NCBI RefSeq assembly: GCF_001548275.1
Contig: NZ_AP014945.1
Span: forward strand, 90,001 to 122,000
Length of the DNA: 32,000 nt
Direction of reading: 5' to 3'
Source of the DNA: Caldimicrobium thiodismutans
GTDB lineage: Bacteria; Desulfobacterota; Thermodesulfobacteria; Thermodesulfobacteriales; Thermodesulfobacteriaceae
Below, piece after piece: positions 1,641 to 31,978 of the stretch (the first letter of the stretch is position 1; each line of letters begins with the position of its first letter). The notes beneath the pieces are model-generated. The model saw only the letters and a list, made by a program, of their open reading frames with translations, was not told where the DNA came from and ran no database searches. Both the position numbers and the translations under genes were made by a program.

Positions 1641-2834
1641 TTATTCAACTACTATTTCTATTTTTTCTATTTTATTCCAAAGATAGCCTGCTGGATTCCA
1701 CAAACTTTCAAAGGGCTGAGATTCACCAATACTATTTGTAGCTCTTGCCATTAATACATATTTACCAGATTTTGTGGGTTTAAAACTATAAAACCATTGA
1801 ATCCATGAGTATCTACCTAAATCTTTGCCAAGCCTTGTGGTATGCCATGTCGTTCCTCCATCTATAGATACAATTACATCTTTTATACTATATCCCCCTG
1901 AAAAAGCTATTCCCATAATATTAATTTCTCTACCCCTTTTAAAGATAGCTCCATCCTGAGGTTCAATTATCAGAGATCTTGTAGTCATTCTACTAACGGG
2001 AACAGTCTTCTTAGGATTTGTTCCTGGTTCCACACAACCACAGGGATTATCAGGTATTCGATAGGCAGTTTTCATCCAGAATCCCTCAAAAGGTTTGTCA
2101 AGAACAGTAATTTCAATTAGGGCCTTTACCCAGTATGTTGCATACCAACCCGGGACAACAAGCCTTGCAGGAAAGCCATTAAGCATAGGAAGAGGTTTAC
2201 CATTCATTTCATAGGCAACTATGATGTCCTCTTCCAGGGCCTTATCAATGGGGAGAGTTTTTACAAAATCCGGAACAGAGGAAAGTGGCCCTGAATCAAG
2301 ACCATTAAAAGCAACTTCCACTGAGCCAATCTTTATCCCTGCCATGTTGAGTATATCTTTAAGTCTAACCCCTGACCAGGTCACATTTCCCATAGCACCA
2401 TTTTTCCATTGTCCCCCTGCTACTCTTGGATTAAAGAAACTTCGGCCATTTCCTGAACACTGAATAACAGCTGTGTAACTAACCTTTTCAAATTTACTTT
2501 TTAGATCTTCCATAGATAATTCAAAAGGTTGTTTCACATTGCCATTTATCTTTAGTCTCCATTTAGTTAAATCAACAGAGGTTGGAATATTGGCAATGTG
2601 CCATCTTACAAAAAGAGCTTCATTAGGAGTAATTAATTCTTTAAAATAATGAAGAGGGGTTTCGAGTTGAGGGGGCCTTGAGGTGAGAAGAATTAACTCT
2701 GTTTTTTCAGGAAATCTGACAAGCTTTCTTTCTTCAGCAAAAAGTGTAGAGGGAATATCGCTAAGAACTGTCATAGCAGTAATAGCTCCGGCTGTTTTTA
2801 AAAAATCCCTTCGAGTAAATTCTTTTTTTCCCAT
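1641..2834 (-). CDS. Sulfite oxidase/dehydrogenase-family molybdopterin subunit (SorA/SoxC-like), Tat-exported
   Basis: Twin-arginine signal TRRDFLKTAGA. Contains the Mo-ligand Cys context VIQCSGNGRSFF typical of the sulfite oxidase family, at about 400 aa. GGAGG SD precedes the ATG. Confidence 0.8.
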   Translation of the reverse strand: MGKKEFTRRDFLKTAGAITAMTVLSDIPSTLFAEERKLVRFPEKTELILLTSRPPQLETPLHYFKELITPNEALFVRWHIANIPTSVDLTKWRLKINGNVKQPFELSMEDLKSKFEKVSYTAVIQCSGNGRSFFNPRVAGGQWKNGAMGNVTWSGVRLKDILNMAGIKIGSVEVAFNGLDSGPLSSVPDFVKTLPIDKALEEDIIVAYEMNGKPLPMLNGFPARLVVPGWYATYWVKALIEITVLDKPFEGFWMKTAYRIPDNPCGCVEPGTNPKKTVPVSRMTTRSLIIEPQDGAIFKRGREINIMGIAFSGGYSIKDVIVSIDGGTTWHTTRLGKDLGRYSWIQWFYSFKPTKSGKYVLMARATNSIGESQPFESLWNPAGYLWNKIEKIEIVVE

Positions 2835-2905
2835 ATTTACCTCCTACGAAAAATTTGTTATGTTATTACCTAAGTTTTTGCATATATAGGGGTTATAATA
2901 GAAAC

Positions 2906-3065
2906 ATGGAAAAGAGAGTAAGGCAGGGCAACTCCATTTTACCTGGGCTTTTAAGCCCTCAGTGGAGTTTGTTGCCTGCCTGCTTAAACCATTATAAGTT
3001 GGTTGGGTTTGTAAACCCTCGTCAAGTTGGAGGATTGGTGAGCAGGTCCCCTGCCTTACTAAAAC
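2906..3065 (+). ncRNA. Candidate IS110 bridge (guide) RNA encoded in the left end
   Basis: TATAAT lies at 2894-2899. A 12-bp long-range stem pairs 2917-2928 with 3049-3060. Two internal hairpins (2945-2958, 3005-3018) are each flanked by unpaired segments. The segments around hairpin 1 match the insertion site (see findings). RNA ends are approximate. Confidence 0.55.
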
Positions 3066-3086
3066 AAAATAAAAGGAGGTCCACCT

Positions 3087-4313
3087 ATGCACTACACCTA
3101 CTTTGTAGGCCTTGATGTCTCCAAAAACTTCTTTCATGCCTGCCTCATTGATTCCTCTCAAAATGTCCTCTTTAACCAGTCCTACCCTCTTGACTACCAG
3201 GGCATCAGTTCCTTTACAAAAGCTCTCCCTCAAGGCTTAAAAAAATCCATCCTTATCGGTATTGAATCCTCCAGTTGTTATCATCTTAATCTCATCACCT
3301 ACCTCGTTAATCATAACTTCACTTGCGTCATCCTTAATCCAATTCTCATTAAAAATTTTGCTAAACTCTCTCTTAGAAAAACCAAAACCGATGCCATAGA
3401 CGCTAAAACTATCGCCATCTTCCTTTCTCAATTCCATCAAAAACTACCTCCCCAGGCCTTTACTTCTGAAGAATTTAAAGACCTTGCCAGAGAAAGAGAA
3501 AGAATTTCTCAAGAAATCGCTAAAAGAAAAAATAACCTCGAAAAACTTGTGGTCGTTACCTTCCCTGAACTTGAAAGAACCGTCAATATCTACAATACCT
3601 CCATTCTTAAACTTCTTGAAAAATTCCCCTCTGCTAAAGCTATTAAAAAAGCCTCTCTTGAGGAAATTGAAAATATACTCTCCTCTCAAAAAGGTAAAAA
3701 ACCCGCCATTTCTGCTAAAGAAATAAAAGCCCTTGCTGAATATTCTATAGCTCAAAATTGGCCCGCAAAAGAATATATTCTTTCCAGAACCATTCAAGAA
3801 CTCTTCTTCCTTCAGGAAACCCTTAAAGAAATTGAAAAACTTCTTAAATCCGCTTGTAAAGAGATTTCCGCTTGCCAGGACCTTGATATCCTCCTTTCTA
3901 TTGAGGGAATTGGAGAAATTACAGCGCTTCATTTTCTTGCTGAAATTCAAGATATAAAGAGATTTCAATCTTACAAACAATTGATTGCCTATGCAGGACT
4001 TGATCCTGCTGTTTATGAATCTGGAAACTTTAAAGGAAAGAGCAAGATTTCTAAACGAGGAAATAGGCATTTGAGAAGGGTTGTATGGCTTATGAGTATT
4101 AATGTAATCAGACACAATCCTATATTCTGGAGCTATTTTGAGAGGAGAAAAAGACAAGGATTGCCTTATAAAAAAGCGGTTTTGGCCACCGCTCATAAAC
4201 TTTTGAGAATTATTTATGCACTTCTCAAATATAAAAAATATTTTGATCCTTCTACTACTTATCATAATATTCCTTCTCAAGGAGGTTTTTACTATGCTTA
4301 TAATTTTTCATAG
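3087..4313 (+). CDS. IS110-family transposase/recombinase (DEDD RuvC-like N-domain plus C-terminal Tnp domain)
   Basis: N-terminus YFVGLDVSKNFFHACL. C-terminus EGIGEITALHFLAEIQDIKRFQSYKQLIAYAGLDPAVYESGNFKGKSKISKRGNRHLRRVVW. AAGGAGG SD lies 7 nt upstream of the ATG. Confidence 0.93.
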   Translation: MHYTYFVGLDVSKNFFHACLIDSSQNVLFNQSYPLDYQGISSFTKALPQGLKKSILIGIESSSCYHLNLITYLVNHNFTCVILNPILIKNFAKLSLRKTKTDAIDAKTIAIFLSQFHQKLPPQAFTSEEFKDLARERERISQEIAKRKNNLEKLVVVTFPELERTVNIYNTSILKLLEKFPSAKAIKKASLEEIENILSSQKGKKPAISAKEIKALAEYSIAQNWPAKEYILSRTIQELFFLQETLKEIEKLLKSACKEISACQDLDILLSIEGIGEITALHFLAEIQDIKRFQSYKQLIAYAGLDPAVYESGNFKGKSKISKRGNRHLRRVVWLMSINVIRHNPIFWSYFERRKRQGLPYKKAVLATAHKLLRIIYALLKYKKYFDPSTTYHNIPSQGGFYYAYNFS

Positions 4314-4317
4314 TTGA

Positions 4318-4431
4318 CTCCACAGGCAAGATTGCCTGTGTTACTTTCAGACTTGTAAAGCTTCCCTTGTATAGATATCTAATTCCCCTTTTACCCCACT
4401 TTTTTTTCTTGTAAGGATATAAACTTATGAA
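4318..4431 (+). repeat. Repeat family R1, module-B fragment split by the IS (its first ~11 nt are at 2861-2871)
   Basis: CTCCACAGGCAAGATTGCCTGTGTTACTTTCAGACTTGTA...CTTGTAAGGATAT is colinear with 725-840. Hairpin CACAGGCAA/TTGCCTGTG lies at 4321-4340. Confidence 0.9.
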
Positions 4432-4523
4432 ACTTGTGTATGGGGCTATTGGCAAACCTTTGTGTTTTCTCGTTACATGTTCCTTTATATTATTGGGCGG
4501 ACAGGAAAAATTTTTACCCCCTC

Positions 4524-4553: not shown

Positions 4554-4581
4554 AATTTCAATTTCAATTTCAATTTCAATT
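4554..4581. repeat. Tandem hexamer (AATTTC) x4 plus a partial unit, at the predicted transcription start
   Basis: Direct reading: AATTTC AATTTC AATTTC AATTTC AATT. Confidence 0.9.
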
Positions 4582-9590: not shown

Positions 9591-10027
9591 AAGAGTCTAA
9601 TGTGCTTGGGTTTTTTTAACTTTTATGTTCAAATTTTTTCAAGGATAGGGGAAAGGATAAAGGGAGTCCTTTCCCGCAGGTGTTCAGAGTTTTATGATTT
9701 TAATACAAGGCAAAAATTTCTGGCAAAAGCAAAATAAAGCCTCTCTTCTCAAAGATCATCTTTCAAAAAAGTAAGAGGGATTTTTTGGTTTTAATATTTA
9801 TTTTTTTAATATTTAATTTTTTCCCAGGTATGAGATTGAACTTATGCTTGAAAAACACATTTTGGATTTGCTGATGGTATAAAGCTTTTACACTATAAAT
9901 ATCTATCAGAGCAGAGATACAAATTTGTAACTTTTGACATTTTTGTGCTCTTTTTTTTTGAATATCTCCTGATATATTAAAGATTTGGAGGGCCTTTTTT
10001 GGGTATAAATTTTGTTAAGAGTTTTAC

Positions 10028-18228: not shown

Positions 18229-18282
18229 TTGCCTCATTAAAAATCTATTCGAAATTTTATCGTTGCCTCATATAAAAAATCT
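18229..18282. repeat. Direct repeat TTGCCTCAT(T/ATA)AAAAATCT x2 upstream of the efflux promoter
   Basis: Copies at 18229-18246 and 18263-18282. Confidence 0.7.
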
Positions 18283-18537
18283 CCTAAATCCAATTTAGAT
18301 CTTCTATTTAACCTTCACAAAGAAACTACCTATTTCGCCCCTCTTGAATTTACGAGCTTAGTTCTTTCGCAAAGCTTATTTCTAAGGAAAGAGTGGGTAA
18401 GGAGCTTTGCAGAAAGATAAGGAGATATCAGAAAATGCTTGAGAGATCATATTTAGAGAAAAAAGGGAATTATTTTCGGGAAAAAAATTGACAATAAAAA
18501 GAAGGAAGAGGTAAAATAATTCCCTTTAGAAAATTAA
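18280..18537 (+). repeat. Repeat family R2, copy a (promoter-bearing)
   Basis: Colinear with the reverse complement of 25436-25702. Differences are scattered substitutions and one ~12-nt indel. It starts with the palindrome CTAAATCCAATTTAG and ends with ...TTTAGAAAATTAA. Confidence 0.9.
18488..18517 (+). promoter_or_regulatory. Sigma70-like promoter inside R2a facing the glutamate synthase operon
   Basis: TTGACA (18488-18493), 18-nt spacer, TAAAAT (18512-18517). Confidence 0.55.
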
Positions 18538-18564: not shown

Positions 18565-18634
18565 CACCTCTCACCTTTCACCTTTCACCTTTCACCTTTC
18601 ACCTTTCACCTCTCACCTCTCACCTCTCACCTTT
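18565..18634. repeat. Heptamer tandem array (CACCTYT) x10
   Basis: Unit order: CACCTCT x1, CACCTTT x5, CACCTCT x3, CACCTTT x1. Counted directly. Confidence 0.95.
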
Positions 18635-22493: not shown

Positions 22494-22852
22494 TGCATAA
22501 ATTCAGATCCTTACAAGAAGAAGGAAGTGGGGTAAAAGGGGAATTAGATATCTATACAAGGGAGGTTATACAAGTCTGAAAGTAACACAGGCAATCTTGC
22601 CTGTGGAGGTAAATTACACTCCAATGTATGAAAGAAACACAGACAAGAATGTCTGTGCTACAACAGACCCACAAAAAAATTCAAGGGGTATAAAATTTTA
22701 AACCCCTACTTAAGGAAAGATTTTGCAGATTTTTTATCCTTTCTTTCCGAAGGGGAACGGGTATGTGGAGAGATTTAATTTGTGTTAGGCCCAAAGAAAA
22801 AAATTCTATAAAGTCTTAAAAGATATGGATGCATACAAGAACTGGTCAAAAG
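22494..22852 (-). repeat. Repeat family R1, full copy, inverted relative to 485-849
   Basis: Reverse complement is colinear with 485-849, differing only by scattered substitutions and 1-nt homopolymer indels. Unoccupied IS target: AG (= CT on the other strand) at 22607-22608. Confidence 0.9.
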
Positions 22853-25435: not shown

Positions 25436-25702
25436 TTAATTTTCTAAAGGAATTTATTTTACCTCCCCCTCCTTTTTATTGTCAATTTTTTCCCCGAAAA
25501 GGATTCCCTTTTTTCTTTAAATATGCTTTCTCAAGCATTTTCTGATATCTCCTTATCTTTCTGCAAAGCTCCTTTACCTTTCCCCCCACTCTTTCCTTGG
25601 AAATAAGCTTTGCGAAAGAACTAAGCTCGTAATTTCAAGAGGGGGCGAAATAGATAGTTTTTTCGTGAAGGTTCAAGAGAGGGACTAAATTGGATTTAGA
25701 AG
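25436..25702 (-). repeat. Repeat family R2, copy b (inverted relative to copy a)
   Basis: See 18280-18537. The palindrome CTAAATTGGATTTAG lies at 25685-25699. Confidence 0.9.
25456..25485 (-). promoter_or_regulatory. Sigma70-like promoter inside R2b facing rsmE
   Basis: On the minus strand: TTGACA (25485-25480), 18-nt spacer, TAAAAT (25461-25456). Same geometry as in R2a. Confidence 0.5.
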
Positions 25703-25707
25703 ATCCC

Positions 25708-31643: not shown

Positions 31644-31801
31644 GGCAGTTGTATAAGTCCATATCTTTTGAGACTCTATAGGATTTTTTCTTAGGGCGTA
31701 ACACAAATTAAATCTCTCCACACAATCCCCCTTCGGAAAGAAAGGATAAATAATCTTTAAAATCTTTCTTTTAAGTAGGGGTTTAAAATTTTAAACCCCT
31801 A
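31635..31801 (+). repeat. Repeat family R1, module A only
   Basis: Colinear with 485-650. Ends in the perfect palindrome AGGGGTTTAAAATTTTAAACCCCT (31777-31800). No module B follows. Confidence 0.85.
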
Positions 31802-31978
31802 CCCTGGATACCTCAAAAGCAGAAACAGTTGCCTCTGTTCCATACTTTTTACCACCCCTCCTCAAACACCTTAGGTCTGCCCCTACATTAATGATGAAAA
31901 CTGTCTATTTTTAAAAAGGGATTGCACAAGGAAAGAGCTAACATTGATTTTTCATAAAAGAAGCCTTAAAATAAAGCT

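Follow-up and report, generated by a model that had tools for sequence, protein, structure and literature searches.

The 32,000-nt stretch of the Caldimicrobium thiodismutans genome analyzed here (hereafter the window, whose forward strand is used for all positions) carries an IS110-family insertion sequence at 2843-4319 (+ strand; 1477 bp, including the right copy of the core dinucleotide). The recombinase gene of this element (3087-4313, +; 408 aa; stop codon TAG at 4311-4313) encodes the Pfam domains DEDD_Tnp_IS110 (PF01548) and Transposase_20 (PF02371), and scored 240 bits against a cut-off of 140 for the NCBIfam equivalog NF033542, "IS110 family RNA-guided transposase". Its relatives in the Protein Data Bank (PDB) were ISCro4 and IS621, and the catalytic residues D10, E60, D102, D105 and S322 were found within the motifs GLD10, GIE60, KTD102AID105 and S322KRG. 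Upstream of this gene, in the noncoding left end of the element (2843-3086), window 2914-3065 (+) is very probably the gene of a bridge RNA, as expected for an element with a DEDD and Tnp (Ser) recombinase. A first-pass annotation, made from the sequence alone, had likewise proposed a bridge RNA whose first loop binds the target, and both parts of that proposal held.

Boundaries of the element

The termini were set from five close and seven distant orthologous insertions. The closest relatives were L001, from a Thermodesulfobacterium metagenome-assembled genome and representing the same insertion as L052 (84-85% protein identity), L053, whose recombinase was 84% identical to the window protein, and L051 (99% protein identity) and L054, two copies in assembly GCA_017880035.1. 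In the left-end alignment, the sequence common to the window and L051-L054 began with CCTCCTACG (2840-2848), identity extending from CCTCCTACGAAAAATTTG (window 2840 onwards), and the DNA further left was unrelated; in the right-end alignment, identity ran up to CATAGTTGACTCC and the DNA further right was unrelated. The homology of these five elements was bounded by CCTCCTACG on the left and TAGTTGACTCC on the right, and both CTCCTAC at the left terminus and TAGTTGACT at the right end were invariant in all orthologues.

According to the five independent insertions, the left junction reads TATTTAC-CT-CCTACGA (2834-2849), while the right junction reads TAGTTGA-CT-CCACAGG (4311-4326). Since CTCC is common to both junctions (2841-2844 at the left), the crossover is not resolvable within it, and CT was taken as the core dinucleotide following the convention of the IS110 family. 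The left core copy (2841-2842, +) was recognized from the junction in comparison with L051-L054 and with uninterrupted copies of R1, an intergenic repeat, and the right one lies at 4318-4319. The left target half (LT, positions 1-7, TATTTAC; 2834-2840, +) is where the homology of independent insertions stops, and the right donor half (RD, CCTACGA; 2843-2849, +) is the left terminus of the element. The left donor half TAGTTGA and the right core copy (4311-4319, +), invariant in all orthologues, are followed by the right target half (CCACAGG; 4320-4326, +), with which the right module of R1 begins. The right end is only 6 nt long, because the stop codon of the recombinase sits in the left donor half. 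With these ends, the donor is CATAGTTGA-CT-CCTACGAAA, that is, CATAGTTGA-CT-CCTACGA. The first-pass annotation had identified the right junction and the R1 target correctly, and had set the left end at 2872, which is 29 bases inward of the true junction (2841-2843); its "local left flank" GTTATTACCT (2863-2872) and "left-end start" TAAGTT (2871-2876) both lie within the element.

The copies L051 and L054 were inserted in complete R1 copies, exactly at the site that is empty in the window (around 722 and 22610). The uninterrupted R1 copies (around 710-735, +, and 22600-22625, -) read GTAATTT[G/A]CCTCCACAGG, equivalent to GTAATTT[G/A]C-CT-CCACAGG. The recombinase had roughly 3200 homologues at E<=1e-40. 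Seven further elements (41-58% protein identity; L055, L056, L057, L058, L060, L061, L062/63/64 and L013) had the same termini (CT-CCTAC... and ...TAGTTGA-CT) and an alignable left end. In L058 (950-972), the left flank TTTTTCATAGTACC-CT repeated the element's own right end (TTTTTCATAGTTGA-CT) with changes, and may be what is left of an adjacent copy or a donor-like site.

Structure, conservation and promoters of the left-end RNA

The region 2900-3086 folded with a minimum free energy of -64 kcal/mol (z -2.76), a value reached by none of 200 dinucleotide shuffles. Five helices (P1-P5) were evaluated on an alignment of 11 orthologous sequences: 94.3% of the cells were paired and 20 of the 36 pairs had changed on both sides, while no column shuffle out of 500 performed as well, and sliding the partners by 1-3 columns left only 32-54% of the cells paired. 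The same five helices were obtained by RNAalifold, unprompted, and G-U pairs occurred in them on the + strand.

The 12-bp closing stem P1 (AGTAAGGCAGGG, 2917-2928, perfectly complementary to CCCTGCCTTACT, 3049-3060; +) showed changes on both sides in 7 of its 12 pairs, and closes two arms, the first with the target-binding and the second with the donor-binding loop. The first arm consists of the basal stem P2 (CAAC, 2929-2932, with GTTG, 2971-2974; +), paired in 100% of cases with all four pairs changed on both sides, and of hairpin 1 (P3; 2945-2958, +), which caps the target-binding loop (three of five pairs changed on both sides). The second is formed by the stem P4 (CCTGCT..ACCA; 2979-2984 and 2988-2991 with 3036-3046, +; changes on both sides in 5/10 pairs) and by hairpin 2 (P5; 3005-3018, +), which caps the donor-binding loop and in which T-A was replaced by C-G in four sequences. 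The conserved structure is one of two stem-loops (P2/P3 and P4/P5), each with a large internal loop and a capping hairpin. The closing stem and the two hairpins were already part of the first-pass annotation, which had read every motif at its correct position (TATAAT at 2894-2899, the hairpins, AAGTTGG on both sides of hairpin 2, and GTCAA at 3021-3025); the stem, both hairpins and two further stems were found to be kept by compensatory changes.

A covariance model built from ten of the aligned sequences scored 175 bits on the + strand of the window vs. 18 bits on the - strand, and found an element outside the training set (L066-L074, 46% protein identity) at 135 bits. When it was applied to 49 loci of distant IS110 elements (22-45% identity), only L013 matched and nothing was found in the other 48, so these loci could not enlarge the covariation set. 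A pattern scan of viral contigs for the donor loop gave no match. In L062 (approximately 195-240), as well as in L063, L064 and partly in L058, a 45-nt insertion separates the donor arm from the 3' strand of P1; it contains a hairpin and a T run (CCAAAAAATCTTTGATTTTTTGG), resembles a terminator, and its length preserves the antisense reading frame described below.

Several alternative pairings were considered and discarded. An extended target-arm stem competing with P1 (GGCAGG, 2922-2927, with CCTGCC, 2975-2980) was mostly paired, but had no double-sided changes against the seven of P1. The pairing of guides with each other that appeared in single-sequence and consensus folds (CUCCAUU/AGUGGAG and UUGGU/GUCAA) was rich in wobbles and lacked compensatory changes, and its CUCC side was lost in L013 and L060; it was read as a side effect of loop sides that mimic both strands of one duplex. 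The complementarity of TTGCCTG (2972-2978) to CAGGCAA of an R1 hairpin, and that of ATTATAAG (2991-2998) to CTTATAAT in the right end, were not conserved in orthologues and were at chance level.

A promoter split across the circle junction was detected, with a -35 box TTGACT formed by the right end and the core (4314-4319), a 16-nt spacer, and an extended -10 box TGT-TATGTT (2856-2864, +; hexamer at 2859-2864). The same arrangement, TTGACT followed by 16-18 nt and a -10 box, mostly with TG, was present at the sequence level in 12/12 elements, most of them with a better -10 box than that of the window (e.g., TTGACT-17-TATAAT in L055). This family-wide promoter is predicted to exist only in the excised circle, where the joined ends would drive transcription of the bridge RNA. 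For the integrated state, no sigma-70-type site was called in 2780-3120. The TATAAT box (2894-2899, +), which the first-pass annotation had taken as the promoter, is indeed present, but it is limited to the closest relatives (L051-L054), lacks a -35 box, and takes the place of a 5' stem-loop seen in other relatives; it may serve the window lineage as an internal promoter.

Target- and donor-binding loops

In the bridge RNA of IS621 from Escherichia coli (Durrant et al. 2024, PMC11208160; Hiraizumi et al. 2024, PMC11208158; PDB 8wt6), loops 1 and 2 bind target and donor, respectively; the 5' side of the guides has the top-strand sense of the left target and core, and the 3' side complements the core and the right target (PMC11208160). 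Loop order and strand polarity in the window equal this published scheme (PMC11208160, PMC11208158), which settles the question of polarity raised by the first-pass annotation. The evidence supports the first internal loop as the target-binding loop. Its left target guide (LTG, AUUUUACCU; 2936-2944, +) abuts hairpin 1, has the sense of the top strand of LT and the core, and so pairs with the bottom strand. The true left flank, TATTTAC-CT (2834-2842), has TTTACCT in common with the loop (7 contiguous positions; LT matches the guide at 2938-2942), and the guide matched 7/9 positions of the local flank and 8/9 of R1. On the other side of the hairpin, the right target guide (RTG; 2959-2967, +) pairs through GUGGAG (2962-2967) with the top-strand CTCCAC (4318-4323), and C2960 and U2959 can additionally pair with G4325 and G4326. 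Both strings noticed at first, CATTTTACCT at 2935-2944 and TCAGTGGAG at 2959-2967, are as described in the first-pass annotation.

For 11 different guides, the RTG bases located 5' of GGAG (invariant) were compared with the bases that follow CTCC (also invariant) in the right flank of the same element. Complementary bases stood in 20/22 cells when the first two variable positions were taken (10.3 expected), and in 27/33 when the third was included (14.5 expected; permutation p ~2e-5 in both cases). For instance, three RTG bases of L053 are not those of the window, and the L053 guide UAGGGAG is matched by the L053 flank CTCCCTA; in the L066-type element, five distinct insertion sites showed CTCC[C/T]TT, with CTCCCTT as the prediction. 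The guide on the left side varies little, and 49 of 102 positions matched the left flank across the family vs. 43.7 expected (p 0.13). The covariation between loop and flank that the first-pass annotation suggested as a check was observed for the RTG (p ~2e-5) and was not significant for the LTG (p 0.13-0.27).

These results bear on a rival reading, in which the recombinase mRNA carries the structure as a cis-acting leader that regulates its translation or stability, a guide function is absent, and the flank matches arose by chance. The structure does lie directly upstream of the Shine-Dalgarno sequence (SD) and ATG of the recombinase (3075-3089), without a terminator after it, and short unanchored matches are common: 5.5% of dinucleotide shuffles had both 6-7 nt RNA/target matches at any position. 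For this reason, it is the exact register and the covariation among orthologues that carry weight. A leader without guide function would not explain why the 3' side of loop 1 changes with each element's own right flank, nor why loop order, polarity, core pairing and handshake positions (see below) reproduce the IS621 scheme next to a recombinase of an RNA-guided family, and we consider it highly unlikely.

For the bridge RNA, the assignment of the donor guides relies on complementarity and on the IS621 structure, because the donor and its loop are nearly invariant; the register proposed here follows that analogy. The putative left donor guide (LDG, AGUUGGUU; 2997-3004, +) was located by complementarity, both partners being invariant. 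The right donor guide (RDG; 3019-3032, +) would be discontiguous, by analogy with A157-U158 and C162-G165 of IS621, in which the hairpin is followed by two paired bases, two flipped-out ones, one in a non-canonical pair with T12 and four that pair in the core-proximal part (PMC11208158). In the proposed model, UCGU (3019-3022, directly after hairpin 2) pairs with ACGA (2846-2849) and GGAG (3029-3032) with CTCC, giving 4 + 4 pairs, while CAAGU (3023-3027) is looped out and U3028 stands opposite T2845. The bases just 5' of GGAG are probably looped out, since they vary freely while the DNA is constant. A contiguous pairing (GUUGGAG/CTCCTAC) was rejected in favor of the loop-out model, as the bases beside GGAG vary freely while TAC is invariant. 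Compensatory changes in L013 (AU with AT) and in L057 and L061 (UUGU with ACAA) give modest support to the RDG pairing. As for the core, the LTG ends in CU, the RTG and RDG end in AG, and the LDG has UU (wobble); the LDG of L056 and the L066 type, GUUGAUU, has one wobble fewer. In L052 and L053 the RDG has UUGU where the window has UCGU.

The first-pass annotation had described a different arrangement, in which 2872 is the first base of the element and TAGTTGACTAAGTTTTT the donor, TAAGTT (2995-3000, core plus left end) and GTCAA (3021-3025, with TTGAC) serve as donor guides, and transcription starts from the TATAAT at 2894. Its strings are present in the sequence, and GUCAA does complement TTGAC of the right end and is nearly invariant. 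Nevertheless, five independent insertions whose flanks are unrelated agree in all 29 bases to the left of 2872, the AAGTTGG on the 3' side is not conserved (AAGATGG or ATCATGG in relatives), and TATAAT is absent from the more distant orthologues. With the left end misplaced by about 30 bases, the donor and the donor-guide assignments derived from it were wrong, and this version of the system is hardly tenable, the least probable of those considered.

In the bridge RNA as delimited here, the base that follows each GGAG (U2968 and G3033) fits the published handshake rule (PMC11208158). The UU of the target loop (2968-2969, +) can pair with donor A7 and G6 (4317 and 4316), but not with target C7, and both the U and donor A7 are invariant; in the GA of the donor loop (3033-3034, +), G3033 is able to pair with C7 of the target (2840) but not with A7 of the donor, and target position 7 is C in all 18 insertion sites. 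By analogy with IS621, these bases may act as handshake positions, which favor strand exchange by pairing with the partner DNA at position 7 (A in the donor, C in the target). Following the same analogy, which also underlies the recombination chemistry proposed, the RNA would be produced and bound by the recombinase, and the loaded DEDD/Ser enzyme would insert the element at ...TTTAC-CT-CCAC... sites. The recombining DNA pair in such a scheme would be CATAGTTGACTCCTACGA and AATTTACCTCCACAGG, with CATAGTTGACTCCTACGAAA as the proposed donor and GTAATTTACCTCCACAGG as the proposed target.

Insertion at ribosome-binding sites, antisense frame and known systems

The gene flanking the element on the left encodes a TAT-signal molybdopterin oxidoreductase (1641-2834, -), whose SD, GGAGG (2840-2844 on the other strand), is composed of position 7 of LT, the core and the two bases with which the element begins. 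Read as its reverse complement, 2830-2849 (TCGTAGGAGGTAAATATGGG) is the start of this gene, and 2834-2840 corresponds to its spacer plus the first base of the start-codon region. At 15 of 18 independent sites, the left flank contained GGAGG followed by 4-11 nt and the ATG or GTG of a gene on the opposite strand, which was a called gene in 13 of them. The target CCTCC is the reverse complement of the opposite-strand GGAGG, which insertion rebuilds because the element begins with CC. These flanks included the window, L052, L053, L055-L058, L061, L063, L013 and L066-L072, always in the same orientation. Many RTGs are literally AAGGAG. Despite the rebuilt GGAGG, insertion severs the host gene from its own upstream region.

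The repeat R1 is modular (497-840, +; 22494-22838, -; 31649-31802, +, left module only; 4320-4432, +, right module only) and the window element has it on its right side only. It was not necessary to explain the non-R1 left flank as the trace of a deletion, given the modularity of R1, seen in the copy that has the left module alone, and a left flank that is a typical ribosome-binding site of the subfamily. R1 carries several perfect hairpins, e.g., CACAGGCAAGATTGCCTGTG just right of the insertion point, and the junction between its modules, where L051 and L054 are inserted, resembles a ribosome-binding site (GGAGGTAAAT). Other repeats in the window were a pair of inverted repeats (18279-18537 and 25436-25704; approximately 260 nt, 86-97% complementary in three blocks) that bracket a 6.9-kb segment with one R1 copy, and the tandem repeats AATTTC (x4.7 at 4554-4581, 230 nt right of the element), a 15-mer (x2.3 at 9789-9822) and CACCTTT (x10 at 18565-18634).

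On the opposite strand, a reading frame that is codon-aligned with the recombinase spans the whole element (2844-4280, -). Two in-frame stops split the window copy into open reading frames (ORFs) at 3444-4280, 3237-3440 and 2844-3233, the last of which covers the entire bridge RNA gene. In 9 of 12 elements the frame was intact, with 470-486 codons (e.g., L053, 486-1934, minus strand). It opens after a TGA that stems from the last sense codon and closes with a TAG, derived from CTA (2844-2846) in the left terminus, generating TAG-GAGG followed by 4-9 nt and the ATG of the host gene. All left-end lengths were multiples of 3. Across ten left ends, a single stop was found in this frame vs. 67 and 57 in the other two antisense frames; nine of the ten were open, with no stops vs. 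3-9 in the others. Moreover, the window recombinase gene contained three TTA/CTA/TCA codons, while 19-22 were expected from host codon usage (P 4e-6); host usage was the basis of comparison, because synonymous-codon shuffling cannot test a frame that is codon-aligned with the recombinase. The frame had no match in Pfam, and no such frame was found in other IS110 subfamilies (L002-L050), except in high-GC cases. The ATG in AACTATG at the right end was discarded as its start, since it lies in another frame and gives peptides of 2-22 aa in most elements. The reverse complement of the right end (4308-4319, minus) reads GGAG-TCAACT-ATGA, with a remnant of the host SD 6 nt before the ATG; this ATG overlaps the TGA that closes the codon-aligned frame.

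One could propose from these data that the region is mainly the 3' part of a minus-strand protein gene and that the RNA structure is a by-product: the open frame, the left-end lengths and the avoidance of codons that make antisense stops all agree with it. Coding, however, does not explain pairs that change on both sides through G-U intermediates on the + strand, nor the covariation between guide and flank, and the frame lacks a Pfam match and is cut by two stops in the window. As a replacement for the RNA, such a gene is very improbable, even more so than the leader considered above; the coding and the RNA readings can coexist, and it is only as a replacement that the former fails. It is possible, although we regard it as rather doubtful, that the bridge RNA gene is dual-coded with the last 70-90 antisense codons and that the element is built to be translated through by host ribosomes. 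The frame would open just behind the host SD remnant at the right junction and end on the rebuilt GGAGG, and the target loop would be hard-wired to ribosome-binding sites, with an SD-like GGAG in the RTG and an LTG that reads like anti-SD plus spacer. In that case, a hed-like protein (see below) might be expressed, or the downstream host gene might be kept expressed by translational coupling and protection from polarity, and the RNA structure would impose constraints on the antisense frame and vice versa.

A number of observations weigh against the bridge RNA interpretation or parts of it. Concerning the target loop, the LTG/left flank association was not significant by permutation (p 0.17-0.27), and the matches were bimodal, with 9 sites at 4-5/6 and 8 sites at 0-2/6, while the right side always matched. 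In the donor loop, guides and ends are almost invariant, so that the pairing depends on complementarity and analogy; the 8 pairs proposed for the LDG include 2 wobbles, one of them at the first core base, the looped-out RDG segment has 5 nt vs. 2 nt in IS621, and compensation at RD position 15 was seen in L057 and L061, but not in L055, L060 or the L066 type. The interpretation does not account for an additional CCT that L052 (1245-1260) and L053 (473-488), both relatives with 84% identity, carry at the left junction (..CCT CCT CCTACG). In addition, part of the conservation may be due to something else, as an open reading frame occupies the antisense strand of the same region. Finally, Rfam 15, which would supply a curated model for comparison, gave no match at the gathering threshold, and none at E<=10 when the + strand of 2700-4500 was scanned. 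Two further observations concern these sites. At several of the poor LTG sites the flank matches when shifted by one base, as the spacing between SD and ATG varies. The L053 target, TTTTTAC-CT-CCCTA, would match the guides of L053 over 15 nt if the extra CCT belongs to the element.

The window RNA follows the canonical bridge RNA logic and is a system of a known kind. As in IS621, it is encoded in the left end, upstream of a DEDD/Ser recombinase, with the target loop before the donor loop, 5' sides that resemble the top strand, complementary 3' sides, and the CT core in the guides. The similarities extend to an LTG of 9 nt abutting the capping hairpin, a predicted RDG that is discontiguous, some of its bases being looped out and one forming a non-canonical pair opposite T12, candidate handshake bases that directly follow the RTG and RDG on the 3' side and suit position 7 of the partner DNA, and, at the sequence level, a promoter rebuilt at the circle junction. 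In contrast to IS621, the window recombinase has 408 aa vs. 326-341 aa (phmmer aligned the C-terminal domain only, E 3e-17), a 12-bp stem closes both arms, and the window lineage has a degenerate 5' stem-loop. Further differences are an RTG of at least 6 nt vs. 4, a putative looped-out RDG segment of 5 nt vs. 2, donor and target that have CTCC, not CT alone, in common, an LDG that would pair with the core through a wobble, and a 6-nt right end with the stop codon inside the donor site.

Likeness to IS900, an IS110-family element of Mycobacterium avium subsp. paratuberculosis, was established by description, not by sequence. Its target motif is quoted as CATGNNNNNNTCTCCTT in the part of PMC8141618 that cites Doran et al. 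1997, and its "hed" frame, on the complementary strand, spans the whole element without a ribosome-binding site and start codon of its own (PMC8141618). Both elements insert in a specific orientation at translation initiation signals (motif CAT-N(5-11)-CT-CC in the window subfamily) and have a frame complementary to the transposase that spans the element. Unlike IS900, the window element belongs to hosts of another phylum (Thermodesulfobacterium and relatives), inserts inside the SD and rebuilds GGAGG for the displaced gene, with the antisense TAG touching it, and has two stops in its antisense frame. CazIS110-1 of Caloranaerobacter azorensis (bioRxiv 10.1101/2025.10.25.684509) is, by description, another IS110 element of a thermophile; its bridge RNA, approximately 170 nt long, has a target and a donor loop. 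In that study, an RNA with the target loop only was abundant (bioRxiv 10.1101/2025.10.25.684509); in the window, the GGCAGG/CCTGCC pairing could close a stand-alone target arm, without support from covariation. The seekRNA of the IS1111 group (PMC11187229) is a guide RNA of the same DEDD transposase superfamily. Elements of that group have a long right end that holds the guide RNA, together with inverted repeats of 7-17 bp in subterminal position (PMC11208160), while the window RNA is in the left end and the right end has 6 nt.

The results add a fully delimited bridge RNA system from thermophiles (Thermodesulfobacterium and relatives), with its target, donor, guides and a covariance model that reaches relatives down to 41% protein identity; bridge recombinases from thermophiles are of practical interest as stable enzymes. 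The preference for translation initiation signals, of the type known for IS900, is readable here from the target loop, through the CTCC present in donor and target and the SD-like RTG, which connects two lines of work that had been separate. Lastly, a bridge RNA gene lying inside a selected antisense frame would be a constraint to be considered when such RNAs are re-engineered or their conservation is interpreted.

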